Below, one piece after another: positions 1-9,795 of a stretch of 9,795 nucleotides of DNA; positions within the stretch are counted from its first letter, which is position 1; the number at the start of each line of letters is the position of its first letter. The stretch is taken from positions 1 to 9,795 of IMG/VR virus record IMGVR_UViG_2711768052_000007. One strand, given 5' to 3'. Below the pieces are notes generated by a model. The model was given only the letters and a program-made list of their open reading frames with translations. It did not search any database and had not been told where the DNA came from. Both the position numbers and the translations under genes were made by a program. This DNA comes from a virus. Taxonomy: Duplodnaviria; Heunggongvirae; Uroviricota; Caudoviricetes.

Positions 1-564
1 TCAACGACTGCGCTTAGCGTGGCGCTCCCAGTTTTCTTGCTTCGCCTGCGCCGTTTTACGTAGTGCGACGTAACACGCCCCGCTGCCGCCATGATGCGGT
101 AGCGCAGTGCAATATGCCTGAACATCATCAAATTCGGTCAGCCAGCGCGCCACATAGCTGCGGACAATATTGGCATGCGATTTATCATCCCGTCCTTTGC
201 CATGAATAATCAGCACGTTACGCAAACCATCAGCCATGGCTTGTTGAATGAAACTGAACATCATTTTGCGGCACTCTTCCACCGGCTGGCGCAAAAGATT
301 CAGGCTCGCCTGTTGCGGATATTTACCACTGCGCAGCTTATCCAGCACCCCATGTTGCAACCCTTCCCGCCGAAACTCCAGCGGCTGACTTAGTGGGATG
401 ATGTCGAGAAATCCGGTGGTGAGGAAATTATCAAGCTGCAGCGTGTCGATACGCTGCGGCGCACGTTGGTTACGCGTTGGATGCCAGTGGACATCGGTAG
501 CACGTTTCAGCGGCTGGACATCTTCCATGGCGTCAAGAAACAGCGATTTGTCGTCAAGGTTCAT
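1..564 (-). CDS. smrA: Smr-domain protein SmrA (YdaL), probable DNA endonuclease
   Basis: Complete 187-aa ORF (ATG at 564-562, stop at 3-1). The translation matches E. coli SmrA/YdaL as I recall it, including length. SD-like GGAGGATG lies upstream at about 568-575. Confidence 0.85.
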   Translation of the reverse strand: MNLDDKSLFLDAMEDVQPLKRATDVHWHPTRNQRAPQRIDTLQLDNFLTTGFLDIIPLSQPLEFRREGLQHGVLDKLRSGKYPQQASLNLLRQPVEECRKMMFSFIQQAMADGLRNVLIIHGKGRDDKSHANIVRSYVARWLTEFDDVQAYCTALPHHGGSGACYVALRKTAQAKQENWERHAKRSR

Positions 565-1297
565 GTTACATCCTCCCGCAATTAAGAGCGCGATATGATA
601 ACCAGACCGGGTCGGTCCAACAACGTATTACCCAAAATTCCAGTAATAAGTTCCAAATATTGCCGATATTTTAAGCAAAATGCTTATGCATGATTATTCA
701 TTCACGATATTTATAATTAAATGCGCATAACTTATTGAATTTAACCAACAAACATCGCTGCAAATAACGTTAAAAATCGCAAATTAACTACACCATTAAC
801 TACACCGTTCGGTGCACTGTATGCAACAATGCGGAACAAATAGACACAAGCGACGGGCTATACCGTTATCATTTTCCGGCTATCCGCCATGAAGCTGGTG
901 GATGATCACGGATAAACCGTTATGGAAGTCCCCATATCGGCATCATGCCCACCAGCGAGATTAGTTATCTGGTTGCTGATGGGAGGCTGACGAACCTCGA
1001 TGCTAGGGTGCGCAAAACTAGTGAGACCTTTTTTCTCTGCAACAGGCCCATAATTCGCGTTTTCTTTGTCTGCCGTAAGGTGGGGGATTTTTGGCGGATC
1101 CAGCAATGGCGCGGATTTTGTGATTTTTTATAGATAGACCTCATCTATCAATCCCGTGCACACCTTCCCAAAAAAAGTTTTCGAACCTGCGGCGATGAGA
1201 ACAAGGGTAGGCGGGCGGTCCCATAAGCAATGGAGTGTAGGGATTCCGATCCCCCTGGGGGTATTAAACGCCCCACCCTATTTAAATACCGTCTTTT

Positions 1298-1339
1298 TTG
1301 TCACTGGTTGTCACTCTCCGTCACGGTATGTCACCACAA
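1298..1339. repeat. Four GTCAC-containing units phased exactly every 10 bp (candidate integrase arm-type or Xis/AlpA-type binding array)
   Basis: GTCAC occurs at 1300, 1310, 1320 and 1330 (ttGTCACtgg, ttGTCACtct, ccGTCACggt, atGTCACcac), directly 3' of the last island gene. It resembles the lambda Int arm-type consensus (A/C)AGTCACTAT, recalled from memory. Confidence 0.4.
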
Positions 1340-1340
1340 G

Positions 1341-1625
1341 TTAACGTCGTAACCGTTCCGGCTTCTTCCACTGGTAAGTAATTTTTTCTTTCTCCCGGTA
1401 CATCTCTACGCGGCGACGGTATGACAACATCTCCAGAACTCTGGTTCGTATATCGCGCATATCCACGCCGTTAAGCTCAATACCATCACGGCGCATCACC
1501 TCAGCCACTACACGCGCGTAATTTTCGGCTATCACGCTGTCCGGCTGCGTGGCCTCCTGTTTGCCTGTTGTCTGGCTGGCTCCGGTAACGCGGCGAATTA
1601 TTTTGAGCATTTCGGCTTCGGTCAT
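1341..1625 (-). CDS. Hypothetical protein (94 aa) downstream of the small-terminase-like gene
   Basis: ORF with internal ATG at 1625-1623 preceded by GGAGG with about 8 nt spacing. The longer track ORF (to 1715) has no RBS. I do not recognise a family. Confidence 0.5.
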   Translation of the reverse strand: MTEAEMLKIIRRVTGASQTTGKQEATQPDSVIAENYARVVAEVMRRDGIELNGVDMRDIRTRVLEMLSYRRRVEMYREKEKITYQWKKPERLRR

Positions 1626-1770
1626 GGTTATGGCCTCCGTGGTGATGGGAAACAATGCCGTAATTGTGGCGGGTCCTTCTTGGAAAATGAAATACCGGGG
1701 TAGCCATACGCGCAATTCTTAACTGTTTATGAAAATTTTTCGAGTTCCACTCCCGGTTTTTTTATGACCT

Positions 1771-1791
1771 AACCAATTGATTAAATTGGTT
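1771..1791. promoter_or_regulatory. Perfect 8-bp inverted repeat AACCAATT-N5-AATTGGTT (operator-like)
   Basis: Read directly from the sequence, in the 215-bp gap between the terS-like stop (1840) and the next gene start (1625). Confidence 0.3.
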
Positions 1792-1839
1792 TTAAATATC
1801 AAATCAACCGGAAGTCTGACCAGTTGAGGGAAATGATGA

Positions 1840-2301
1840 TCAGGTGTCGTTTTGCCTGATTAATTTACGCTTCTTTTTGTTTTCATTTGTGTGTTTTTTA
1901 AGGCGTTTTAATGTCAGTTCTCGCCCGATCTCAATTCCCTGCGCTCTGCCCCTAGCCTGTGCGATCTCGTCCGGTGAATAACCGTAAATTTCCAGACCTT
2001 TATTAAATTTTTTTTCGTACTCTTGTTTGTCTTCTTCTTCACCAACCATACTCAACATGATTTCACGCGAATGCATAATGCAATCAAGCGGATGAAGTTC
2101 GCCAGTCATACCCAGTTCTTTGAGTCCTTCCTGTCCTCTTACCCAAAAAAGAACATGTCCTAACTGGTAGCGCCCCGGCTTTCCTTTATCTCCTTCAATG
2201 AATGGCAAACCGCGTTTAGTCCATGCCCTGACAGTTGTCCTGTCTACTCCAAATTGATCTGCTATTTCCTGCTGGCTTAAGAAAAATTCTTTTTCACTCA
2301 T
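1840..2301 (-). CDS. Terminase small subunit-like packaging protein (Nu1-type N-terminal winged-HTH, divergent C-terminus)
   Basis: The N-terminus (LSQQEIADQFGVDRTTVRAWTKRGLPFIEGDKGKPGRY) aligns with lambda Nu1 (KKQLADIFGASIRTIQNWQEQGMPVLRGGGKGNEVLY). The track ORF begins at a TTG (2337); the ATG at 2301-2299 (MSEKEFF) matches the Nu1 N-terminus better. The gene lies immediately downstream of a cos-like site. Confidence 0.7.
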   Translation of the reverse strand: MSEKEFFLSQQEIADQFGVDRTTVRAWTKRGLPFIEGDKGKPGRYQLGHVLFWVRGQEGLKELGMTGELHPLDCIMHSREIMLSMVGEEEDKQEYEKKFNKGLEIYGYSPDEIAQARGRAQGIEIGRELTLKRLKKHTNENKKKRKLIRQNDT

Positions 2302-2379
2302 AATGTTACCAATAATTACTGGTTGAATATTAATCAAGTGGTGGTGGTGTACCCTTTCCCGGAAAGCGTCATAAATAGC

Positions 2380-2440
2380 GCTTTTTTGCGCGTCTGCCGC
2401 CCCGTAACCTTTCGGATCGCCGGAAAGGACCCGTAAAAAA
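2380..2440 (-). other. Lambda-type cos site (cosQ-proximal sequence, cosN-like 12-mer, start of cosB)
   Basis: Minus strand reads ACGGGTCCTTTCCGGCGATCCGAAAGGTTACG|GGGCGGCAGACG|CGC...GCGCTATTTATGA. The lambda genome ends and start, as I recall them, read ...ACGGGTCCTTTCCGGTGATCCGACAGGTTACG|GGGCGGCGACCT|CGCGGGTTTTCGCTATTTATGA. The cosN-like 12-mer is at 2391-2402 (plus coordinates). Confidence 0.7.
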
Positions 2441-2456
2441 GCCGGATTTCTCCGGC
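2435..2456 (-). terminator. Putative intrinsic terminator after the 137-aa gene, overlapping the cosQ-proximal region
   Basis: On the minus strand, hairpin GCCGGA-gaaa-TCCGGC is followed by TTTTTT, 7 bp after the stop at 2463. It may instead be part of cos architecture. Confidence 0.35.
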
Positions 2457-2462
2457 CTTGTC

Positions 2463-2876
2463 TCAGATGGTTTTCAGTATGCGATCGATGTCGTCGTCAT
2501 CACCCGGATTTCTTCCATCGTATTCCATGCCACCTGACACTGCTTTGGGGCTGTGCATATCCATAAAGTTTTCAAAGGCTGCAGTAAGCTCCGGCGGAAC
2601 CTTCGGGCGTTCCTGCTCTATGGTCATGTTCAGGATGTCTCTTGCCCCTTCAACATCGATACAAGGAACATTCGCCATTGCACGCAACATCGGCTGATAT
2701 TCGGCTGCTTCATGAAGCGCCATAATCGCATCAGCGCGCGGCTTGTCCTGTTCTTCCAGTTTGTTCAATCGGTGTATGGCTTCGTAGGTTGATAAACCTC
2801 TGTCAGCCATTGCCCGCGCTTCGGCCTTAAATTTACTCGCCAGCGGTAGCGCCATGATCTCTTCATTGATTGCCAT
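2463..2876 (-). CDS. Hypothetical protein (137 aa, acidic C-terminus) between the decoration gene and cos
   Basis: ORF with ATG at 2876-2874 preceded by AGGGGGGA. The track ORF extends to 2930 but that extension overlaps the upstream gene and has no RBS. Family not recognised. Confidence 0.5.
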   Translation of the reverse strand: MAINEEIMALPLASKFKAEARAMADRGLSTYEAIHRLNKLEEQDKPRADAIMALHEAAEYQPMLRAMANVPCIDVEGARDILNMTIEQERPKVPPELTAAFENFMDMHSPKAVSGGMEYDGRNPGDDDDIDRILKTI

Positions 2877-2889
2877 CGTTCCCCCCTGC

Positions 2890-3225
2890 TTATCGTGCCA
2901 GCGGCTGAACGGATACGCCAGAACCCGCAAAGGCAGCGCATTTTTTCGCGTCAGTATCGACGCTCTCGGGCCAGTTAACGACGGCGATATTGAATATCCC
3001 CGTCTTGTAACACTGTGCAGATTTTTGTTTTGCCGTGTCCAGTGGGTAGGAGGTCAGATAAATGGCCTTGCCTGACTCCTGACCGCCCCACGCCTTAAAC
3101 TCGCCGTTCTCCGTCATCATCAGCGGGGTAAGCTCGGGAATAACTCCGGCATCAGCGGCAAAGTGTACCAGCGTAGTGGAAACCTGCTGTGTACCGGACA
3201 ATAATTCAACATATGGAACGCCCAT
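2890..3225 (-). CDS. Head decoration protein (lambda gpD-like)
   Basis: 111 aa. TPLMMTENGEFKAWGG...CYKTGIFNIAVVNWPES...KKCAAFAG aligns with lambda D (TPLMLDTSSRKLVAWDG...FYKSGTFRYEDVLWPEA...KRTAFAG). ATG at 3225 is preceded by GGGGGA. Confidence 0.8.
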   Translation of the reverse strand: MGVPYVELLSGTQQVSTTLVHFAADAGVIPELTPLMMTENGEFKAWGGQESGKAIYLTSYPLDTAKQKSAQCYKTGIFNIAVVNWPESVDTDAKKCAAFAGSGVSVQPLAR

Positions 3226-3236
3226 AAAATCCCCCG

Positions 3237-4292
3237 TTAACCAATTTTTACGGTAACAAATTTGCGGATATCTGCCGGAACCGGCTGTGGTGCGCTGTGC
3301 GTCTGCACGTATTCAATCGACGGATCGCCGCCCTCAATCCAGTTTTTCGGGTAGTACATGTTTCGCGTTGCGCCAGTTCTTACCGCTTCCTGATCCATAA
3401 TCGCGCCATAGGCCACCAGTCCTTTATTGCTGGTATTACCCAGAACAAGCAAATCAGGCTCAAGGAAATATTTTTCCGTTCCGTCGCCGTCAGTGTATTT
3501 ACCGGAATAAACGATAAGGGCCAGATCGCCAAGATAGCCTTTAAAGCTCACCACTTCGCCCAGGTTTTTACACGCCAGCTCTGCGGCGGATTCTGAACCA
3601 CGGGAAAGATCGTACAGTTCACGAAATTTTTTAAAGCTGCGTAACGTGCGCCATACCTCAACGCCCATAATCATGACGTTGGCGGGGCAACCTGCCTGAT
3701 CGGTGTACAGTTCGATGTCATAAATTGGATCGTGCGTTTCCTTGTCAGCCTCTGACCACTTTTTACCTTGTCCCTGCGTAATGATGTTTTTAGTCGGGAT
3801 TTTCCAGTCGATTTCGTATCGATTTATACCTTCGCCTTCAATGATGTTTTTCCCGGTCGTGACTGCATTCACCGCCAGCCATTCCACACGCGCTTTAATG
3901 GAATTTACCTGGCGGCGCATGTTGCCCGTAATCAGGCGCATACGACGGTATGTAGGGTCGTTAAGCTGTGCTGGATCTTCACCAGCCATGCGTATGATGG
4001 TTTTTGATGGATCGATTTCGTGTTTGGGTTTCATGTAGCCAGGGCGGATAGTGCTTGTTTCGTACCCTTTATCTCGCTGAACCTGGCTACCCACCATAGG
4101 CGAACAAAACGCCGACATGGTGACTTCTTCAATATCCAGGGTATCTAACATGATGTCCTGCGTGTTGAAGGTCGCCACGTTCGGGAAAAACAGCGACGTA
4201 AACAGCGGACTAAATTTAAAATCTGGAATATCCTGGCGATTCAGATATGTAAAAAGCTGATGCGTGTTAAGCGCCTGCGCTTTGTCTGTCAT
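3237..4292 (-). CDS. Major capsid protein (lambda gpE-like)
   Basis: 351 aa with conserved blocks shared with lambda E: FKFSPLF, PGYMKPKHE, EDPAQLNDPTYRRMR, VVSFKGYLGDLALIVYSGKY, VLGNT, YPKNW, GDP, SAP. The start ATG overlaps the upstream stop (ATGA). Confidence 0.9.
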   Translation of the reverse strand: MTDKAQALNTHQLFTYLNRQDIPDFKFSPLFTSLFFPNVATFNTQDIMLDTLDIEEVTMSAFCSPMVGSQVQRDKGYETSTIRPGYMKPKHEIDPSKTIIRMAGEDPAQLNDPTYRRMRLITGNMRRQVNSIKARVEWLAVNAVTTGKNIIEGEGINRYEIDWKIPTKNIITQGQGKKWSEADKETHDPIYDIELYTDQAGCPANVMIMGVEVWRTLRSFKKFRELYDLSRGSESAAELACKNLGEVVSFKGYLGDLALIVYSGKYTDGDGTEKYFLEPDLLVLGNTSNKGLVAYGAIMDQEAVRTGATRNMYYPKNWIEGGDPSIEYVQTHSAPQPVPADIRKFVTVKIG

Positions 4293-4498
4293 TGCTCACC
4301 CCCATGAGTCTGATTCATGCCAAGCGCAGCGCGTAAATGGCTGCGTACCATCCAACCAACTGACGGCTTCACCATGCACAACGGATCAAGGCCGACTTTT
4401 TTGCCTGCTTCTGCGTTCTCCTCAAAGCGCGCATTAAGTGCCGCGATAATATCGGGGCTGATGTATACGGATACACCGCCCAGCTTCTGTGTTCCCAT
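4289..4498 (-). CDS. Hypothetical small protein (69 aa), translationally coupled to the capsid gene
   Basis: ATG at 4498-4496 is preceded by AGAGGA, and the stop overlaps the capsid ATG. The upstream part of the track ORF (to 4564) has no RBS. Confidence 0.4.
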   Translation of the reverse strand: MGTQKLGGVSVYISPDIIAALNARFEENAEAGKKVGLDPLCMVKPSVGWMVRSHLRAALGMNQTHGGEQ

Positions 4499-4550
4499 AA
4501 ATGAAATTCCTCTTTGACTAAAAAACAAACATAACGAAAAATCAGTCATG

Positions 4551-4580
4551 ATTTTAATCATCATTGCATTTTTTGCAATG
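4551..4580 (-). promoter_or_regulatory. Putative sigma70-type promoter for the head/packaging operon with an overlapping inverted repeat
   Basis: On the minus strand, -35 TTGCAA (4578-4573), 16-bp spacer, -10 TAAAAT (4556-4551). The 7-bp inverted repeat CATTGCA-N5-TGCAATG (4562-4580) overlaps the -35 and spacer. Confidence 0.3.
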
Positions 4581-4675
4581 CAATTGACTATTATTGCAAA
4601 TCATGAAAGTATAATTCCGCGGTTTTACCTTGTATCGTAGAGTTGTTAGCATCAATCACGTTAACGGCATGAAAT

Positions 4676-4709
4676 CCCCCCGGAACCTCATCCCGGGGGG
4701 ATTTTTTTT
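4676..4709 (+). terminator. Strong plus-strand intrinsic terminator
   Basis: 8-bp GC stem CCCCCCGG/CCGGGGGG (4676-4683 / 4693-4700) with a 9-nt loop, followed by A and T8 (4702-4709). Confidence 0.6.
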
Positions 4710-4713
4710 GCGC

Positions 4714-4741
4714 ACAAAAAAGCCGTGAAAAATCCCGGCTT
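4714..4741 (-). terminator. Minus-strand intrinsic terminator after the SSB-like gene
   Basis: On the minus strand, hairpin AAGCCG-N10-CGGCTT is followed by TTTTTT. It lies about 15 bp downstream of the alternative-frame TAA stop at 4758-4756. Confidence 0.45.
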
Positions 4742-4755
4742 CTGTCACTCGTTGC

Positions 4756-5122
4756 TTAAAACGGTATGTTATCCCCGTACGGATCATCATTTCCCGCCTG
4801 TTGTTTTGCCCTGTTCAGTGCGTCAGTAGCCTGGCCCTGTTGACCTTTTTTGCCGCCCGGGCGCGCCGTTCTGGCCTGTCCACTGGCTTACCTGCATGTT
4901 ACCCGCCACGCTCACAAGTTCGCCTTTCTGGTGCTTTGCCAGTGCGTCGGCCTGTCTGCCAAACGCCAGGACGGATAACCACATCGTCGCCGTTCCGTCA
5001 TCTGCCTGGCTGCACGGCAGGGGAACCGCCATACTCGCCATCGCCATTTGTGTCCCTTTGCTGGTGGTCTTTAACTGCGGGTCAGCCACCAGCCGCCCGT
5101 AAGCCGCTATCTGTGCTGTCAT
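4756..5122 (-). CDS. SSB-like single-stranded DNA-binding protein with an apparent +1 frameshift near an A6 tract
   Basis: The track ORF (4823..5122) shows an SSB-like OB-fold pattern (GRLVADPQL..., WLSVLAFGRQADALAKHQKGELVSVAGNMQVSQWTGQNG versus E. coli SSB [40 protein letters not shown]). The +1 frame downstream of the A6 run (4846-4851) continues to ...AGNDDPYGDNIPF and stops at 4758-4756. IPF is the hallmark C-terminal tip of bacterial SSBs. Confidence 0.5.
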
Positions 5123-5370
5123 GATTCCACCTCTCCGGTTTTAACATTGATGGTTGTCACCTGTTCCGCTTCGGCAATCTCCCGTTCTGTCAGCGTGGCA
5201 AAGTTTGCTGCCGCCGTGGTCATGAATGCGCTTATCAGTTCGGGGTGTGCTTTCGCGTATCCTTCCCCGGCATGGCGGTCTATCGTTCTGATTGCCACCT
5301 TTAAGGCGTGCTCTGTCATGTCTAATGCGCGATATTTTGGCGCTGTCTTATCTCTGGTTTTTCTGGTCAT
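5119..5370 (-). CDS. Hypothetical protein (83 aa) between the origin and the SSB-like gene
   Basis: ORF with ATG at 5370. Its stop overlaps the SSB-like ATG (ATGA). No family recognised. Confidence 0.45.
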   Translation of the reverse strand: MTRKTRDKTAPKYRALDMTEHALKVAIRTIDRHAGEGYAKAHPELISAFMTTAAANFATLTEREIAEAEQVTTINVKTGEVES

Positions 5371-5379
5371 TCCTCACTG

Positions 5380-5573
5380 CTCCCCACTTTTACTACCCAC
5401 TTTTTGAAATTACCCAACGTCTCCCCACTTCTTTTTTTTGTGATTCTAACGTGATGTTTTTCAATGTATTTTTTATTCCCCACTTTTTGGGGTATATACA
5501 GGTGGGAAAGTGGGGAATCGCGTTTCAATTTTGTTAAATTCCCCATACTCCCCACTTTTACTACCCACTTTTT
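5380..5573. repeat. Iteron-type origin of replication candidate
   Basis: An identical 26-bp direct repeat CTCCCCACTTTTACTACCCACTTTTT occurs at 5380-5405 and 5548-5573. The short motif TCCCCACTT occurs at 5381, 5422, 5477 and 5549, with an inverted copy AAGTGGGGA at 5508-5516. An AT-rich spacer lies at 5431-5476. The region is immediately 3' of the Rep-type gene. Confidence 0.6.
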
Positions 5574-6987
5574 ACAGTGGGCGCACGTCATCACCGTCAA
5601 TAGCAATAACGCCATCACCTTCCAGCTTGTACAGCCAGCGCCGGAAGTGTTTCATCTCATACCCCAGCTTTTTCATATCATCGCGCAACAACGGAATTGT
5701 GCATTTATCGCCGCGCTGTGTGCGTGAACGGATACAGCCCCATAGCGCGGCATGATTCTCCGTCTTGTTCCCGGCTTCCTCGATGCGCTCCAGTTCAACG
5801 GGTGGGCGCGGTTTATCCACAACCACCAGCGACGTGATTAACTCCTTGTCAGCGTCGGTAAAAAGCTCCACCACACGTAAATCGTATGCAGCCTCTTTCA
5901 GTTCCTCCGCGTCCTTCATTTTGGTGCAGGAGATAACCAGGGCTTCACTGTCTGCACCTTCACGGCGAATACGGTATTCAGCGTCCAGAGATGCACGAAA
6001 TGCACTGGAACCACGCGCCCCCTTTGTTTCATCCTTGCCGGAATGGTGAACCACCAGCACCGTGGCCCCTGTGCGGCGTTTCAGTTCGTCACATCCACGG
6101 ATAAACGCCCCCATATCCCGCGCGTCATTTTCATCATTACCGCCAAAGCAACGCGCCAGCGTATCAAGAATAATCATGCGTACCGGTTTACCCGTTTCCC
6201 GTTCAACCTGGCGGGAAGCGATGACCATTTCATCAACATCAAGCGGGACTGCCGGAAAAATCGGGCGGTTTACCAGGTACAGATTTTCCACCCGTTCATC
6301 ATTAACGATTTCCCATGCCTTGATACGGCGGGGGACACCAATGCCACCTTCACCGACAACATACATCACCGAACCATGCGCCACCCTGCGGCCTCCCCAG
6401 TGACGGCCAGTGGCAACATGACACGCCCAGGAACACGCGAGGAACGATTTATAGGAACCGCTCGCGCCGTATGTGCTGCACAATGAATTAGCCGGAATCA
6501 CGCCCTTAACGACATAATCAAGCTGTGTGTCGTACCCTGCAGATCCAATGCTCATTGGTAGCGTGGTTTTTCGCTGGCTGTATTGCTCGTCAGTAAGTAT
6601 TTCCCCGCGCTCTGCCTGTTCGCGGATCCGTTGCAGGTAGTCGTGCCAGTTCTCCAGCTTCTGGCTGTGCATTCCATCAGGGTAATAATTCGCATCCCGT
6701 ACACCTGCCGCCGCCAGCTTTTGCCCGATAGCATTAATATTTGACGGCTTGATGTGGCCTGCCTTGTACAGCCGGACACAATAGCGACCATCGTCGATGA
6801 TTTTCAGGTCTGCCAGTTCGTCAAGCTGGCTGTCTCCAAGCCATACGGGTGGCACGTTGTCGCCAGCAAGTCGCCCGTCCTGTTCCTGCCATTGTTTCGC
6901 GTGCGCCCAGGCATCACTACCCGCAAAAATAATGACTTCGGTCATTTTGTCGTGTGGCTGTTTTTTTAAGTTCGGTGCCAGTTTCAT
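5572..6987 (-). CDS. Replication initiator / helicase-type ATPase (RecA-like P-loop NTPase with C-terminal winged-helix)
   Basis: 471 aa with a Walker A-like YGASGSYKSF, then MIILDTLAR and VLVVHHSGKDETKG blocks typical of RepA/DnaB-like satellite and plasmid replication ATPases. The C-terminus looks like a DNA-binding domain. The start ATG overlaps the upstream stop (ATGA). Confidence 0.75.
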   Translation of the reverse strand: MKLAPNLKKQPHDKMTEVIIFAGSDAWAHAKQWQEQDGRLAGDNVPPVWLGDSQLDELADLKIIDDGRYCVRLYKAGHIKPSNINAIGQKLAAAGVRDANYYPDGMHSQKLENWHDYLQRIREQAERGEILTDEQYSQRKTTLPMSIGSAGYDTQLDYVVKGVIPANSLCSTYGASGSYKSFLACSWACHVATGRHWGGRRVAHGSVMYVVGEGGIGVPRRIKAWEIVNDERVENLYLVNRPIFPAVPLDVDEMVIASRQVERETGKPVRMIILDTLARCFGGNDENDARDMGAFIRGCDELKRRTGATVLVVHHSGKDETKGARGSSAFRASLDAEYRIRREGADSEALVISCTKMKDAEELKEAAYDLRVVELFTDADKELITSLVVVDKPRPPVELERIEEAGNKTENHAALWGCIRSRTQRGDKCTIPLLRDDMKKLGYEMKHFRRWLYKLEGDGVIAIDGDDVRPL

Positions 6988-7283
6988 TTTTTACCCCTGA
7001 ATGCGTTAATCATGTTTTTCATTTTCTGAATATTTGCCCGTGCCTTTGCGTTGCTGGTGGGCTGTTTGCGTGGTGTGGCCTGTATCAGTGAAAAATCACG
7101 CCGGAACTGATAAACAGGCATCACGCAGTCATAACCGTACCCATCACGGCGGTAAGTAACGCACCGTCCCGCCACGCTTTTAATCGTTACCGTGCCGCCG
7201 TAGTTATCCCGGAAAATATCGCCGGGGCGGATTTCAGGCCGAGCGGGGCCGCTGGCAGTAAAGCCAGAATTTTTCTTTTTCAT
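6984..7283 (-). CDS. Hypothetical protein (99 aa, basic C-terminal tail), translationally coupled to the rep gene
   Basis: ATG at 7283 is preceded by AGAGGA. No family recognised. Confidence 0.5.
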   Translation of the reverse strand: MKKKNSGFTASGPARPEIRPGDIFRDNYGGTVTIKSVAGRCVTYRRDGYGYDCVMPVYQFRRDFSLIQATPRKQPTSNAKARANIQKMKNMINAFRGKK

Positions 7284-7288
7284 GGTTT

Positions 7289-7498
7289 TTATTCCTCTGC
7301 GCGGGTCTTGTCGTGTATTTCCATAACCGCGTTTAATTCATCAATAACCGGGGTTAACAGAGTGCTGAAAGCAGAAAATAAATCCCCCCCCCGTTCGGCA
7401 TGAACTTCGGTTAATTTAATTAATACCGCTTTCATTTCCAGTGCCCGGTTTAATGCATTCTCAGAATGAATAAGAACATCGAAAGGGATTTTATCCAT
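7289..7498 (-). CDS. Hypothetical small helical protein (69 aa) containing a G10 homopolymer
   Basis: ATG at 7498 overlaps the upstream gene end by 8 nt. A run of 10 C (plus strand 7383-7392) lies inside the ORF. No family recognised. Confidence 0.4.
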   Translation of the reverse strand: MDKIPFDVLIHSENALNRALEMKAVLIKLTEVHAERGGDLFSAFSTLLTPVIDELNAVMEIHDKTRAEE

Positions 7499-7957
7499 GG
7501 CTTACATCCTCCGTGAATTTTCTTCTGTACCGTGCCTCTGCCACATATTCAGCATAGTCCGACGCAATAATAAGAATATCGTTGCCGGTTCCTGAATGTT
7601 CAGCGGTTCCAATTAAAAAACATGCGGCCTTTATCAGGTCATTAACAGCCAGCAACGCATCGCCTGTATCATCCGGTGCGCCATCAAATTCCTGTTTCAG
7701 GGCATTAAAACGATCATCACGCATAACCCCCCCCCATTTTCACAATCAGCAATCAGGATGGCTTTGGCCTCATTCAGTGCCATATCAGCGGTAAGCTGTG
7801 CGTAGGCCAGCGAATGGGGGATTATTGCCCCTGTATACTCCGGCTCTCTGGTAATGTGTTTTTCTGCGGTTGCTGCCGTGCATGAAATATCAATCAGCGC
7901 GTGCATCAGCGTAGTGAGCGCGGCGGCTGCTGCGTCCGGACGTGGGTTATTGCACAT
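7491..7957 (-). pseudogene. Hypothetical protein split into two ORFs at a G9 homopolymer (frameshifted or phase-variable)
   Basis: ATG at 7957-7955 has a strong RBS (AGGAGGT, 5-nt spacer). The frame runs to a stop at 7699-7697 just after the G9 tract (plus-strand C9 at 7727-7735). The 77-aa ORF 7491..7724 continues in the +1 frame, and one extra G would fuse both into about 157 aa. Confidence 0.4.
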
Positions 7958-8249
7958 GGCGCACCTCCTGACGAATACGGGCGGCGAATACAGCGACACA
8001 ACCGGACGGGCAACGGTTACGCGCTTCGCGTTCTGTCCATGCGGTGACGTGGATGATTTGAGATTCTCCGGCACTCAGTGCCAGAAAACGCCACACAAAG
8101 GCCGTTTGTGTGTGCGCTAGGCGTGGGGTATGCTGTGTTCCAGCCATAATCGTTACCTCGTTTAACGGTTTGGTTAGAAGCCCCGTTACTGCTCCAACAG
8201 TGCGGGGCTTCGTCGTTTCAATTGCTGAATTGCATGTATCAGCCCTTGT

Positions 8250-8316
8250 GGTATTCAGATTACATTTTGGTGAATACCATTTCAAGTCTTTTTTGGTATT
8301 CACTTTTGTATTACAC
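8250..8316. promoter_or_regulatory. Operator-like repeats GGTATTCA(C) upstream of the ribbon-helix-helix gene
   Basis: GGTATTCA at 8250-8257; a perfect 9-bp inverted pair GTGAATACC (8270-8278) and GGTATTCAC (8295-8303); a degenerate copy GTATTACAC at 8308-8316. A candidate -10 TATTAAT lies at 8327-8333. Confidence 0.35.
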
Positions 8317-8346
8317 TGCATCCCGTTATTAATCGGAGGTGCAAAC

Positions 8347-8652
8347 ATGTCCACGAGTTCTGTTAACAATAAGTCACAGCAACTGAATGCCAGATTTCCA
8401 CATGAAGTAGTGAGTGGCATTGAGGCATCCCTACAGCCAGGGGAAACTAAAGCGAATTTTATAGTTACGGCTGTACGCGGTGAGATCGCCCGCCGCCAGG
8501 CAGAAGGAAGCGGAGAAAATCCCCTGGTTTCTTCGCTCGATGCACTGGCGCAGGTGGAAAAAATCGGAGTCAAAGCAGCCGAGGAGATCGGGCAACTCGT
8601 CACCGTCGCGCGTGAAGAACTCCAGCGCCGCAAGGCCAAAGAGCAGGAATAG
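8347..8652 (+). CDS. Ribbon-helix-helix (Arc/CopG-like) DNA-binding protein, putative island regulator
   Basis: 101 aa with a strong RBS (GGAGGTG, 5-nt spacer). The N-terminus (QQLNARFPHEVVSGIEASL...ANFIVTAVRGEIARR) fits the beta-strand plus two-helix RHH pattern. It is the only convincing plus-strand gene in the island. Confidence 0.55.
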   Translation: MSTSSVNNKSQQLNARFPHEVVSGIEASLQPGETKANFIVTAVRGEIARRQAEGSGENPLVSSLDALAQVEKIGVKAAEEIGQLVTVAREELQRRKAKEQE

Positions 8653-8656
8653 CCCC

Positions 8657-8675
8657 ACCGGAATTTTTTTCCGGT
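8657..8675. terminator. Hairpin between convergent genes (possible bidirectional terminator)
   Basis: ACCGGAA-TTTTT-TTCCGGT lies 5 bp after the RHH stop and abuts an out-of-frame minus-strand TAA. There is no long U-tract on either side. Confidence 0.3.
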
Positions 8676-9143
8676 TACGCTTTGCCCACCAGCCGCAAAT
8701 GTGGCATTGTTGGTGATGCGTTCAAGTTTGATTTGCCGTAATACCCACTGGCGACCCTTTGCGGTCGCCTTTGTTTTGCCTGTTATCCGGCAATTGTGGC
8801 GCTTCGCCACACGGTTGATATAATCCCACTGCTCAGATTCATTTTTTGCGCAGTAGGTTAATTGTTCGCAAGGGCGCTCCGGCAACGGGGCGCTTTTTGT
8901 TTTTATTAGTTTGTAGAAAACTGACTCAGAGATAATGCTCATATTCTGATTGCCGTCAGGGGGGTAAGTTAAATTTACTCCCTTTTCATCAAGCATCTGC
9001 AACGCTCTGGCGTTAATAATATTGGTTTCACTCCCGCCAATAAGGCCGGAAATAACCGGAATAATTTCAGCGAAATTTTGCAGATTCTGGTTTTCAGGCC
9101 GAACGAAGCCCCGCCCCTGTACAGGCGTATATCCAGTATTCAT
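8675..9143 (-). CDS. Hypothetical protein with a weak Bro-N/Ant-like motif; C-terminal frame unresolved
   Basis: ATG at 9143. The first 150 residues or so look protein-like, and ISESVFYKLIKTKSAP resembles the SESGLYxLIxRSRKPEA motif of Bro-N/Ant-type proteins. The in-frame ORF has no stop until 7947 and runs antisense through the RHH gene; a TAA in the +1 frame at 8677-8675 is the likely true end. Confidence 0.4.
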
Positions 9144-9195
9144 GGTTAAATCTCTGTATTAGTGGATGGGTGGCGGCTGTGTGCCGCCAGCCTGA

Positions 9196-9384
9196 TTAGT
9201 GAACTGCCTCGCGGCTGTCCTTCCATGCCAGAACTTCGGATAAAGACCAGCCAACGGAACGACCACCGAGTTTACGCCGTGATGGGAATTGTCCAGTCTT
9301 CTCCAGGCGATACCGACATGAGCGGCTCAGGCCTGTAAGTTGCTGACATTCTTTTTCACGTATAAAGCGATCTGTGCTTAACAC
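9196..9384 (-). CDS. alpA: AlpA-family (Xis-like HTH) transcriptional regulator
   Basis: The C-terminal 62 aa (VLSTDRFIREKECQQLTGLSRSCRYRLEKTGQFPSRRKLGGRSVGWSLSEVLAWKDSRE) matches the AlpA pattern. A GTG start at 9384-9382 is preceded by AAGGGGGA. The track ORF's upstream 36 codons are low-complexity and lack an RBS. Confidence 0.7.
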   Translation of the reverse strand: MLSTDRFIREKECQQLTGLSRSCRYRLEKTGQFPSRRKLGGRSVGWSLSEVLAWKDSREAVH

Positions 9385-9680
9385 AATTCCCCCTTTGTTG
9401 TTTCTTAAAGAGTCATTGGGTGGATTATTGGGTTGGGTTGTGTCGGATTGTGTCAGGGTGTTTATGGAATGGCAAACACTGGTGGCGGTCATTTTACAGA
9501 AGTGGGGGTAGTGAGAATAAAAATCCTTTTAATTCATTATGATGTAAAGGCATAAAATTCTGTTTTTACGCCTTTTTTACATGTTTTTAAGAGTGATTCG
9601 CCAATGTACAAAAAGCCAGTAAAACGACTGAAAATCAACTTTTTAGGGTGTCAGTCAGATGATAATCAAGTTTGTTCCAG

Positions 9681-9730
9681 ATTGTTCGCCGTTGTTCGTC
9701 GTGGTGTCTCGTTGTTTCACGTTGTGTCCG
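9681..9730. repeat. Five degenerate direct repeats phased every 10 bp (candidate recombination or regulatory protein binding array)
   Basis: attgttcgcc / gttgttcgtc / gtggtgtctc / gttgtttcac / gttgtgtccg, in non-coding DNA about 300 bp to the right of alpA. All three minus-strand frames hit stops within 60 nt of the window end, so no integrase 3' end is present. Confidence 0.35.
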
Positions 9731-9795
9731 TTCTAAAAAATCGCAAAAAAAATTATATTTCTCTGGCTATTGGCAGTGTGGTTACGTTTTCGTGA

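Follow-up and report, generated by a model that had tools for sequence, protein, structure and literature searches.

A very probable replication origin directly downstream of the RepA-family helicase gene in an Escherichia coli phage-satellite island

The DNA analysed here (the window; 9,795 nucleotides, positions 1 to 9,795 of IMG/VR virus record IMGVR_UViG_2711768052_000007) shares synteny with EcCICFT073, which is the prototype of the phage-inducible chromosomal islands (PICIs) of Gram-negative bacteria. The window-type island and EcCICFT073 have a common gene order, comprising int, an alpA-like gene, small ORFs, a DUF4222 gene, rep, ori, an 83–85-aa gene, SSB, and the capsid E and decoration genes. 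Membership in the PICIs was judged by int, alpA or another regulator, a rep module, packaging or interference genes, and a size of about 10–15 kb; the window contains an AlpA-like ORF (9196–9492) and capsid E, decoration and TerS-like genes. A near-identical element (L001) is bounded by int/tRNA-Pro at one end and by yejO at the other. The DUF4222 gene occupies the same position in the eight annotated E. coli PICIs whose rep is intact, as it does in seven loci that were reached through their Rep proteins; it is absent from locus L008, where rep is a remnant. A capsid-forming PICI related to EcCIEDL933 was considered as an identity for the island and rejected, because the island has only lambda-type capsid E, decoration and TerS-like genes, together with synteny with the classical PICI EcCICFT073; window-type islands carry neither portal nor TerL, and the paper on capsid-forming PICIs is silent on origins. 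Searching with the rep/ori junction (window positions 5300–5650) gave matches in 573 of 5,426 complete E. coli genomes. The features of the region are collected in Table 1.

Table 1. Genes, repeats and predicted elements around the candidate origin, by position in the window
Feature	Position	Strand	Remarks
SSB gene of the replication module	4823..5122	-	Pfam SSB; apparently frameshifted in the window (frames compared with L001)
83-aa gene (phrog_1231, function unknown)	5119..5370	-	Directly after the candidate origin; 76% identity to its EcCICFT073 counterpart
Last iteron-like unit, rep-sense GTGAGGA	5371..5378	-	Also the Shine-Dalgarno sequence of the next gene; rep-sense reads ...GGGGAGCAGTGAGGAATG
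26-bp repeat copy A, tandem iteron pair	5380..5405	-	Cores CCCCAC 5382-5387, ACCCAC 5395-5400
Degenerate iteron TACCCAAC	5411..5418	-	Full iteron at the same position in locus L004
Iteron CTCCCCACTT	5421..5430	-	
AT-rich stretch, candidate DNA-unwinding element	5431..5476	.	22% GC, 46 bp
Iteron ATTCCCCACTTT, partner arm of the inverted pair	5475..5486	-	
Palindromic core GTATATAC between the inverted iteron pair	5492..5499	.	Unique in the window; invariant in alignment A1
Inverted iteron AAAGTGGGGAAT (5507-5518), after degenerate GGTGGG (5501-5506)	5501..5518	+	
Degenerate iteron TTCCCCATA	5539..5547	-	Full iteron at the same position in locus L004
26-bp repeat copy B, tandem iteron pair	5548..5573	-	Cores ACCCAC 5563-5568, CCCCAC 5550-5555 (+ strand); abuts and overlaps the rep stop codon
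rep, 471-aa RepA-family (AAA_25, RecA-type) helicase, proposed initiator-helicase	5572..6987	-	Pfam AAA_25 E=3e-44, residues 152-320
Winged-helix domain coding region (Rep residues 400-471, predicted)	5575..5790	-	AF2 pLDDT 76-95 in full-length model, 85 for the domain alone
Codon 447 (CAC, His); N-cap residue of the recognition helix, predicted to determine specificity	5647..5649	-	Helix 3 of the modelled winged helix
DUF4222 gene, conserved upstream partner of rep	6984..7283	-	Pfam DUF4222; overlaps the rep start

Rep is named 'helicase RepA family protein' in RefSeq, and its sole match among PDB sequences is RSF1010 RepA (1G8Y, E=0.004, residues 153–326). The full-length AF2 model is mediocre (pLDDT 66, with helicase loops below 50). 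Its fold core matches RadA, Rad51 and T7 gp4 in Foldseek, and a search with the full-length model recovered nothing beyond RecA-like cores and noise, its quality being poor elsewhere. Judged by sequence and fold comparison, the motor is a RecA-type RepA-family helicase, and not the SF3-type Pri-Rep of EcCICFT073 or the staphylococcal islands (SaPIs). No primase domain was identified in the 471-aa protein; the only lead for its N-terminal 130-aa domain is the PHROG 'DNA primase' family phrog_864. The modelled C-terminal domain comprises three helices (residues 410–425, 431–440 and 448–457) followed by a hairpin (461–470), and its Foldseek matches are winged-helix DNA binders, including MotA, DtxR, the LexA DNA-binding domain, MexR, DnaD-N and the MCM winged helix, with TM scores of 0.55–0.67 and E-values that are weak for so small a domain (0.07–0.3). 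In agreement with what is expected of a PICI Rep, the protein is predicted to be a helicase whose C-terminal winged helix determines which origin it recognizes.

The 201-bp gap between rep, which lies on the minus strand, and the next gene holds all of the repeats, and the array extends from the rep stop codon (5572–5574) to the ribosome-binding site of the next gene. An earlier, sequence-only reading had placed an iteron-rich candidate origin 3′ of rep, which is correct in the orientation of rep itself. It had also described a perfect 26-bp direct repeat that brackets an AT-rich core and overlaps the rep stop codon. The two copies of this repeat (CTCCCCACTTTTACTACCCACTTTTT) are indeed exact, lie 168 bp apart from start to start, and match over exactly 26 bp, as the bases beyond both ends differ between the copies; the rep-proximal copy shares two nucleotides with the TAA stop codon (complement of 5572–5574). 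Locus L099 carries a natural deletion of 168 bp in its origin region. The 9-bp motif TCCCCACTT, which had been counted at least four times directly and once inverted, occurs exactly at 5381, 5422, 5477 and 5549 on the plus strand and in one inverted copy at 5508–5516, with one-mismatch copies (TACCCACTT) at 5394 and 5562. At up to one mismatch, the motif matches nine times in the whole window, seven of them within the 190 bp of 5381–5570; the expected number is 1.97 ± 1.35, and nine matches were reached in none of 200 shuffles. Similarly, seven of the eight occurrences of the 7-mer CCCACTT in the window, counting both strands, fall in the repeat region. Read in the rep sense, the iteron consensus is AAAGTGGG(G/T)A. 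There are seven strong iterons of the form GTGGG[GT], six in sense and one in antisense orientation, and three to four degenerate ones, which agrees with the roughly 6–12 short iterons of PICI origins.

Iterons lie on both sides of the AT-rich stretch, the arrangement of two flanking iteron sets that characterizes PICI origins. The GC content of this stretch is 22%, against 39% for the whole spacer and 49% for the window, and the 40-nt window of lowest GC content falls at the AT-rich position in 9 of 16 mapped loci, including six of the seven with a Rep of at least 677 aa. Next to it, the inverted iteron pair forms a perfect 12-bp inverted repeat with arms 20 nt apart, and all iteron classes have an inverted iteron here. 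Inverted copies number just two, a strong one and a degenerate one, both of them rep-proximal; the outer arrays are co-oriented. The core between the arms is conserved as TATA[TC]A, which is found at this position in 70 of 86 loci, compared with 12 of 1634 control windows in rep coding sequence and 0 of 86 neighbouring spacer windows; the stricter motif GTATA[TC]A, present in 30 of 86 loci, proved too narrow and was loosened to this form.

Most of about 170 related loci share this layout: iterons at the rep stop codon are followed by a TATAYA core set between the arms of an inverted iteron pair, then by an AT-rich stretch and further iterons. A few related loci show no repeats. Roughly 2,900 homologues of Rep are present in the database, and Rep relatives with this layout are widespread in Enterobacterales; among the genera in which it comes after the rep stop codon are Escherichia, Citrobacter, Xenorhabdus, Pantoea, Serratia, Pectobacterium and Morganella. 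The iteron sequence varies between loci while the layout persists, with at least five iteron classes. Specifically, in nine E. coli copies all iterons, including the inverted one, change in concert (CCCCAC, CCTCAC or NCCCAC); the intervening spacers have drifted and the TATACA core is constant. Comparison of the repeat units with the regions 3′ of rep in related islands, which the sequence-only reading had proposed as a check, thus shows a layout that is kept and iterons that change together.

The class of the iterons is tracked without exception by a single residue of Rep. Across about 170 loci, residue 447 is His with GTGGGG, Asn with GTGAGG and Ser with GTGCGG iterons, and position 447 is the only alignment column that splits GTGGGG loci from GTGAGG loci. 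In a set of 76 loci from genomes, His or Lys occurs with G, Asn with A and Ser with C at iteron base 4, and the mutual information between residue and base equals the full entropy (1.36 of 1.36 bits). The association holds in 80 independent IMG/VR loci (60 non-redundant pairs; 38 His/G and 42 Asn/A, no exception) and in four proteins chosen before their DNA was seen, all of which fit the prediction. In particular, the last 70 codons of rep in the window and in locus L089 differ by 12 synonymous changes and a sole amino-acid change, H447N, and all iterons differ from G to A. Since codon 447 and the first iteron are separated by about 75 nt, physical linkage could account for part of the perfect association; variable Rep residues still nearer the iterons (453, 457, 462 and 469) do not track iteron class, which counts against linkage. 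Residue 447 may contact iteron base 4 directly. We give roughly even chances to a broader proposal, in which a single N-cap residue of the recognition helix directly reads iteron base 4 (His–G, Asn–A, Ser–C, Lys–G) and a codon change plus a concerted change of about 7–10 iterons would create a new orthogonal origin specificity. The family would then be a natural set of easily reprogrammable orthogonal replicons. Among phage satellites, its Rep would be the first SF4-like (RepA-type) helicase to load itself and to read the origin with a built-in domain, in parallel to the SF3-type Reps of SaPIs and EcCICFT073 but without homology to them.

The arrangement can be compared with that of characterized satellite origins. 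According to the text of the EcCICFT073 study, E. coli PICI origins consist of two iteron sets on either side of an AT-rich region, immediately after rep, and the EcCICFT073 rep-ori segment drives plasmid replication in a temperature-sensitive plasmid assay (pKO3-blue, rep under PBAD), which is impaired by deletion of ori (Fillol-Salom et al. 2018, ISME J, PMC6092414). This published layout, together with the synteny, bears out the earlier suggestion that the window has the rep-then-ori order of phage-inducible islands. The functional test described there concerns the EcCICFT073 Pri-Rep/ori allele only, which is non-homologous to that of the window (PMC6092414). The N-terminal 130 aa of the two Reps are 63% identical and the products of the downstream genes 76%, whereas the helicase, the C-terminal domain and the iterons (CTGTCTACC) of EcCICFT073 differ from those of the window as one replaced block. 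At 584 aa, its Rep is a 'DNA primase family' protein whose P-loop region (GDGGSGKST) is unrelated to AAA_25, and its iterons (CTGTCTACC and GGTAGAYA) lie in a 288-bp gap, in contrast to the GTGGGG-type iterons in the 201-bp gap of the window. The same study lists four E. coli Pri-Rep alleles, that of EcCIRM13514 among them (PMC6092414). In strain RM13514, the rep/ori query found one PICI, with a RepA-type Rep of the Asn/GTGAGG class, and this Rep is probably the listed EcCIRM13514 allele. The text of PMC6092414, figures apart, makes no mention of a RepA-type motor, of GTGGGG iterons or of the residue-447 correlation, and a literature search for RepA-type PICI initiators returned nothing specific.

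In the SaPIs, as reviewed in Qiao et al. 2022 (PMC9371898, citing Ubeda et al. 2007 and 2012), the C-terminal winged helix of Rep binds iterons just downstream of rep, the origins have 6–12 short iterons and an AT-rich centre, and Rep is a hexameric self-loading helicase. The candidate origin in the window is similarly placed immediately downstream of rep, with short iterons, an AT-rich stretch and a predicted winged helix in Rep. However, SaPI Reps are assigned to the superfamily III helicase clade (PMC9371898), whereas the motor in the window is RecA-type (AAA_25), and no sequence similarity to SaPI Reps was detected in a PDB search, which returned RSF1010 RepA only. Moreover, SaPI origins carry at least two iterons per side in opposite directions (PMC9371898), whereas in the window the outer arrays are co-oriented and the central pair alone is inverted.

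The ATPase core of RSF1010 RepA (1G8Y) is the closest solved relative of the motor, and iteron-containing origins occur in both systems. In IncQ plasmids, RepA is not known to have a DNA-binding domain; recognition of the 20-bp iterons falls to RepC, an initiator encoded separately, and RepB′ is responsible for priming at ssiA/ssiB. By comparison, the helicase in the window has its own predicted winged helix and iterons of about 9–12 bp, and no repC-like or repB-like ORF is found in the window, only the helicase core being related. Classical iteron plasmid origins of the pPS10/RK2/R6K type were defined by a WH1-WH2 Rep, 17–22-bp iterons, DnaA boxes and loading of host DnaB; the window encodes no Rep_3/TrfA-like protein, positions 5341–5604 contain no DnaA box at up to one mismatch and no IHF consensus, and the repeat region has no GATC clusters. 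P4 alpha belongs to the SF3 helicases and includes a primase domain, and P4 needs a second site, crr. The P4 alpha–ori/crr system, which is discussed in the text of PMC6092414, resembles that of the window in being a satellite replicon with short repeated sites, in which one polypeptide combines a helicase with C-terminal origin binding. No P4 type I iteron (TGTTCACC, up to one mismatch) occurs in the region, and Rep is not alpha-like beyond the N-terminal domain that it has in common with the EcCICFT073 Pri-Rep. At SV40 large T antigen site II and in the papillomavirus E1 system, an inverted pair of short recognition elements likewise lies beside an AT-rich stretch and the initiator is a helicase. 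This is an analogy only, as those proteins (SF3/AAA+) are unrelated to Rep.

The repeat-rich gap after rep is very probably the replication origin of the island. As a whole, we consider it highly likely that 5371–5574 is the ori of an EcCICFT073-like PICI, at which the winged helix of Rep would bind the iterons, melt the AT-rich/TATA region and load Rep itself as helicase. Specifically, we infer that Rep, a RecA-type hexameric helicase, would bind short iterons through its C-terminal winged helix. The two tandem iteron pairs (the 26-bp repeats) would form outer arrays, and the inverted iteron pair would bracket the palindromic GTATATAC core beside the AT-rich stretch. Iteron-bound Rep may then open the AT-rich/TATA region and act as a replicative helicase that loads itself, the origin would fire, and the excised island would replicate after helper-phage induction.

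A different role, in which the repeats are mainly a transcriptional operator through which Rep or another island protein controls the downstream operon (the 83-aa gene, SSB and the capsid genes) and replication starts elsewhere, appears improbable. In its favour, iteron replicon initiators often autoregulate, the last iteron-like unit shares bases with the ribosome-binding site of the 83-aa gene, and rep points the same way as the downstream genes, from which no terminator separates it; a scan of 5000–5800 gave neither promoter nor terminator. Against it, the gap holds no sigma-70-like promoter, an AT-rich core and a dyad around TATAYA are typical of origins, and the array stays in place where the downstream gene differs or is missing (L007, L008, L089 and L092). 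The homologous position in EcCICFT073 is the tested origin, as described in the text of PMC6092414, and a regulatory role is in any case compatible with origin function. An Rfam scan found no RNA family in the repeat stretch, its only match being a SAM-VI hit inside rep with a chance-level E-value.

Still less probable is a role of the repeats in packaging (cos/pac) or recombination, as a site for terminase, integrase or AlpA. Arm-type integrase sites often contain direct repeats. Gram-negative PICIs have a TerS-like or Rpp gene as well as a cos site (PMC6739421). Against such a role, the array is located in the middle of the island, right behind rep; it covaries with a Rep residue and not with int or terS alleles, and accompanies Rep homologues across differing capsid/terminase modules (HK97-type, ClpP-capsid fusion and lambda E/D-type). 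Least credible of all is a small protein in which the repeats are an internal peptide duplication. An 83-codon minus-strand ORF (5367–5618) in the window does read KKWVVKVGS twice, and one related genome (L005) has a 50-aa 'hypothetical protein' annotated here; however, in-frame stops break this frame in seven of nine homologous E. coli loci, and none of the reading frames is free of stops in all nine. Furthermore, substitutions cluster between the iterons and not at third positions, the ORF runs over the 3′ end of rep in another frame, and RefSeq annotates the stretch as intergenic in seven of eight E. coli loci. We reject the coding reading, as the frame is not conserved among the nine loci, in line with the earlier view that the overlapping KKWVVKVGS ORF is spurious; a conserved coding region in relatives, named beforehand as the finding that would overturn the origin assignment, was looked for in these nine loci and is not seen.

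The probable origin in the window is a new allele of an already described kind of origin, and leaves the knowledge of how such origins are organised unchanged. The analysis marks a previously unannotated origin of a PICI replication cassette, and means that Gram-negative PICIs swap helicase, reader domain and origin as a single cassette on a constant backbone. Exchange of His447 for Asn is predicted to retarget Rep from GTGGGG to GTGAGG origins. If true, a switch of this type would explain the coexistence of many compatible satellite replicons and could give orthogonal replicons for engineered PICI-based delivery vehicles.

The rep gene, which encodes Rep, is followed by a gap bounded by genes that all lie on the minus strand, and the short repeats in this gap (iterons) are in significant excess and arranged in a conserved, origin-like layout directly 3′ of rep. 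Specifically, TCCCCACTT occurs as four direct copies and one inverted copy, and TACCCACTT as two copies. Nine near-matches to the 9-mer TCCCCACTT are present in the whole window (expected, ~2), seven of them inside the gap, and none of 200 shuffled windows contains at least nine. The 26-bp repeat, the copies of a 9-bp motif and the AT-rich core described in the sequence-only reading are all present in the gap. Outside the origin there are only two near-matches, TCACCACTT at 3548-3556 (+) and the lone iteron-like CCCCCACTT at 9500-9508 (-), the latter just upstream of an AlpA-like ORF (9196-9492, -).

Features of rep and the downstream gap in the window
Feature	Position	Strand	Details
rep	5572-6987	-	471-aa RepA-family / AAA_25 helicase; Pfam E=3e-44
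rep stop TAA	complement of 5572-5574	-	read in sequence
83-aa gene, next after rep	5119-5370	-	starts 201 bp beyond rep
Perfect 26-bp direct repeat	5380-5405 and 5548-5573		within the 201-bp gap
Perfect 12-bp inverted repeat	5475-5486 / 5507-5518		flanks palindrome GTATATAC
AT-rich stretch, 46 bp	5431-5476		22% GC vs 49% in the window

The gap could instead be coding, and an ORF at 5367-5618 (-) encodes the peptide KKWVVKVGS twice. This ORF was rejected as a gene because it contains in-frame stops in seven of nine homologous E. coli loci, and no reading frame is conserved across the gap in these nine, verifying the earlier suspicion that the overlapping KKWVVKVGS ORF is spurious. The gap is intergenic in RefSeq for seven of the eight E. 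coli loci checked. A promoter/terminator scan found neither a sigma-70-like promoter nor an intrinsic terminator in the gap, no Rfam family matches it, and a motif search of it returned no DnaA box, IHF consensus, GATC or P4-type iteron.

An origin placed after rep in a phage-inducible chromosomal island (PICI) is a known kind of feature, because the rep-origin layouts of PICIs and of staphylococcal islands (SaPIs) are published. In Fillol-Salom et al. 2018 (PMC6092414), the PICI replication module is described as pri/rep followed by the origin, the E. coli origins of Fig. 2a have an AT-rich region between two iteron sets, and the rep-ori segment of EcCICFT073, the prototype Gram-negative PICI, maintains a temperature-sensitive plasmid, with ori deletion impairing maintenance. 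The same paper lists four E. coli Pri-Rep alleles, one of them from EcCIRM13514; the PICI matched by our query in strain RM13514 encodes a RepA-type Rep of the same family as the window's, and Fig. 2a may already show the iterons of the window's class or those of the sister class, GTGAGG. In SaPIs, Rep is described as a self-loading helicase whose C-terminal winged helix binds 6-12 iterons just 3′ of rep around an AT-rich centre (PMC9371898).

Comparison across loci reveals which parts of the layout are conserved. Comparing nine E. coli copies shows that all iterons, including the inverted one, change in concert (CCCCAC, CCTCAC or NCCCAC); sequence divergence is seen in the spacers, and the TATACA core is the same throughout. 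In 80 loci of other Enterobacterales, the 260 nt past the rep stop hold three to eight sense and one or two antisense copies of a lineage-dependent motif (GTGGGGA, GTGAGGA, GTGCGGC, GTGGGGG or GTGGGGGC). The layout is constant over the iteron classes, running from iterons at the stop codon through a spacer, an antisense iteron, (C)TGTATATA(C), a sense iteron and an AT-rich stretch to three to five sense iterons. TATA[TC]A lies inside the inverted pair at 70 of 86 loci, as compared with 12 of 1634 control windows from rep coding sequence and none of 86 neighbouring spacer windows. This TATAYA core (GTATATAC at window positions 5492-5499) is kept whatever the iteron class, so recognition by the variable part of Rep is improbable; the core could be where melting nucleates or where a host factor binds.

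In the alignment of E. coli Rep, a single column, residue 447, separates GTGGGG from GTGAGG loci (His versus Asn). Over 76 loci, residue 447 shares 1.36 bits of mutual information with iteron base 4, which is the full entropy and is attained by no other Rep column. Four proteins, selected in the protein database with their DNA as yet unseen, have the residue/base pairing as predicted, and 80 independent IMG/VR loci (60 non-redundant pairs) comprise 38 His+G, 42 Asn+A and no exceptions. Furthermore, over the last 70 codons the rep genes of the window and of a related locus (L089) show 12 synonymous differences, and H447N is the one amino-acid difference. A residue of the predicted recognition helix covaries one-to-one with one iteron base. 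Because codon 447 and the first iteron are ~75 nt apart, linkage has a share in this association; variable residues closer to the iterons than 447 do not follow the iteron class, and the pairing is kept from genus to genus as well as in the independent collection. We infer from these comparisons that the repeats are Rep sites. In loci L006 and L090/L091, where L-K or M-R replaces F-R at residues 448-449, the bases after GTG(G/A)G are variable (GTGGGC, GTGGGA, GTGAGT, GTGAGC), suggesting that residues 448-449 may read iteron bases 6-7.

The tail of Rep is predicted to be a winged helix. AF2 models residues 400-471 with confidence (pLDDT 85), as helices 410-425, 431-440 and 448-457 followed by a beta-hairpin wing. 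The structures most similar to this domain belong to winged-helix DNA binders (among them DtxR, LexA DNA-binding domain, MexR, DnaD-N and MCM WH domain), with weak Foldseek E-values for so small a domain, and full-length Rep is modelled with mediocre confidence (pLDDT 66). In the model, residue 447 caps the N-terminal end of the third helix, the predicted recognition helix, and is flanked by the invariant residues K446, R450, W451 and K454. The Rep motor has a fold akin to RecA/RadA/T7 gp4 and is related by sequence to RSF1010 RepA, its sole PDB sequence match (E=0.004); this RecA-type motor differs from the SF3-type Reps found in SaPIs and from EcCICFT073 Pri-Rep.

Rep shares its first 130 aa, at 63% identity, with the N-terminus of EcCICFT073 Pri-Rep, and the downstream gene is 76% identical, whereas the helicase, C-terminal domain and iterons (CTGTCTACC/GGTAGAYA) of EcCICFT073 all differ from the window's, indicating that helicase, reader domain and origin move as one cassette. 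The shared module spans window 6595-6987 (-; Rep residues 1-131) and L097:8242-8640 in the EcCICFT073 locus, and the rest of Pri-Rep is unrelated. This ~130-aa module matches no Pfam family, its sole lead being PHROG 'DNA primase' phrog_864; AF2 gives it a confident alpha/beta fold, and priming or partner recruitment are possible roles.

Rep homologues in loci L009-L088 fall into three length classes (~350-380, 455-472 and 670-720 aa), all with the same winged-helix motif at the end (K-x-F-x-R-W-L-x-K-L) and then the same origin layout; the long forms (670-720 aa) presumably carry an added N-terminal primase. IMGVR_UViG_2541047774_000008 (L099), whose Rep is 100% identical to the window's, has at 2890-2960 (window 5380-5573) lost exactly 168 bp between the 26-bp repeats, leaving a single repeat copy, presumably a natural origin-core deletion through recombination between the repeats. 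In Xenorhabdus beddingii (L010), a second complete origin-like array lies in tandem ~230-430 nt past the rep stop, with GTGGGGA iterons, an inverted pair, a TGTATATA core and an AT-rich stretch; because the Rep encoded at this locus belongs to the Asn/GTGAGG class and fits the first array, the locus appears to hold two origin-like arrays of different specificity side by side. In E. coli 52F4 (L008:3117-3479), in an island integrated at tRNA-Gly, rep is reduced to its C-terminal 115-120 codons, yet a complete GTGAGG iteron array follows this remnant.

The rep/ori junction is matched in 573 of 5,426 complete E. coli genomes, and in strain Z0117EC0133 the island extends from an integrase beside tRNA-Pro to a small gene beside yejO. 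The window carries AlpA-like, capsid E, head-decoration and TerS-like genes. A capsid-forming PICI, the first guess for this island type, was wrong; the gene order fits EcCICFT073, the two having in common int, regulator, small ORFs, DUF4222, rep, gap, 83-85-aa gene, SSB, capsid E and decoration. The window's SSB gene (4560-5122, -) encodes 99 aa, versus 140 aa in the near-identical island L001, and looks frameshifted or internally deleted, because the conserved C-terminal tail (...DDPYGDNIPF) is legible solely in another frame. A 398-aa ORF (7947-9143, -), replaced by short Icd-like genes in related islands, has matches limited to its last ~65 residues (PHROG 'transcriptional repressor', Icd-like), and no family covers the ~330 aa before them.

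Together, the comparative evidence and the predicted winged helix support the proposal of the sequence-only reading, an iteron origin with a PICI-type rep-then-ori layout and the Rep C-terminus as reader; the gap is very probably a new allele, or a new member, of the known class of PICI replication origins. Rep would bind the iterons via its C-terminal domain, the duplex would open at the inverted pair around GTATATAC and the adjacent AT-rich stretch, the RecA-type hexamer would load itself at the opened site, and the island SSB would then coat the single strands. We give roughly even odds to the idea that a single-residue recognition switch at 447 sets orthogonal origin specificities, together with a self-loading RecA-type initiator-helicase in phage satellites.
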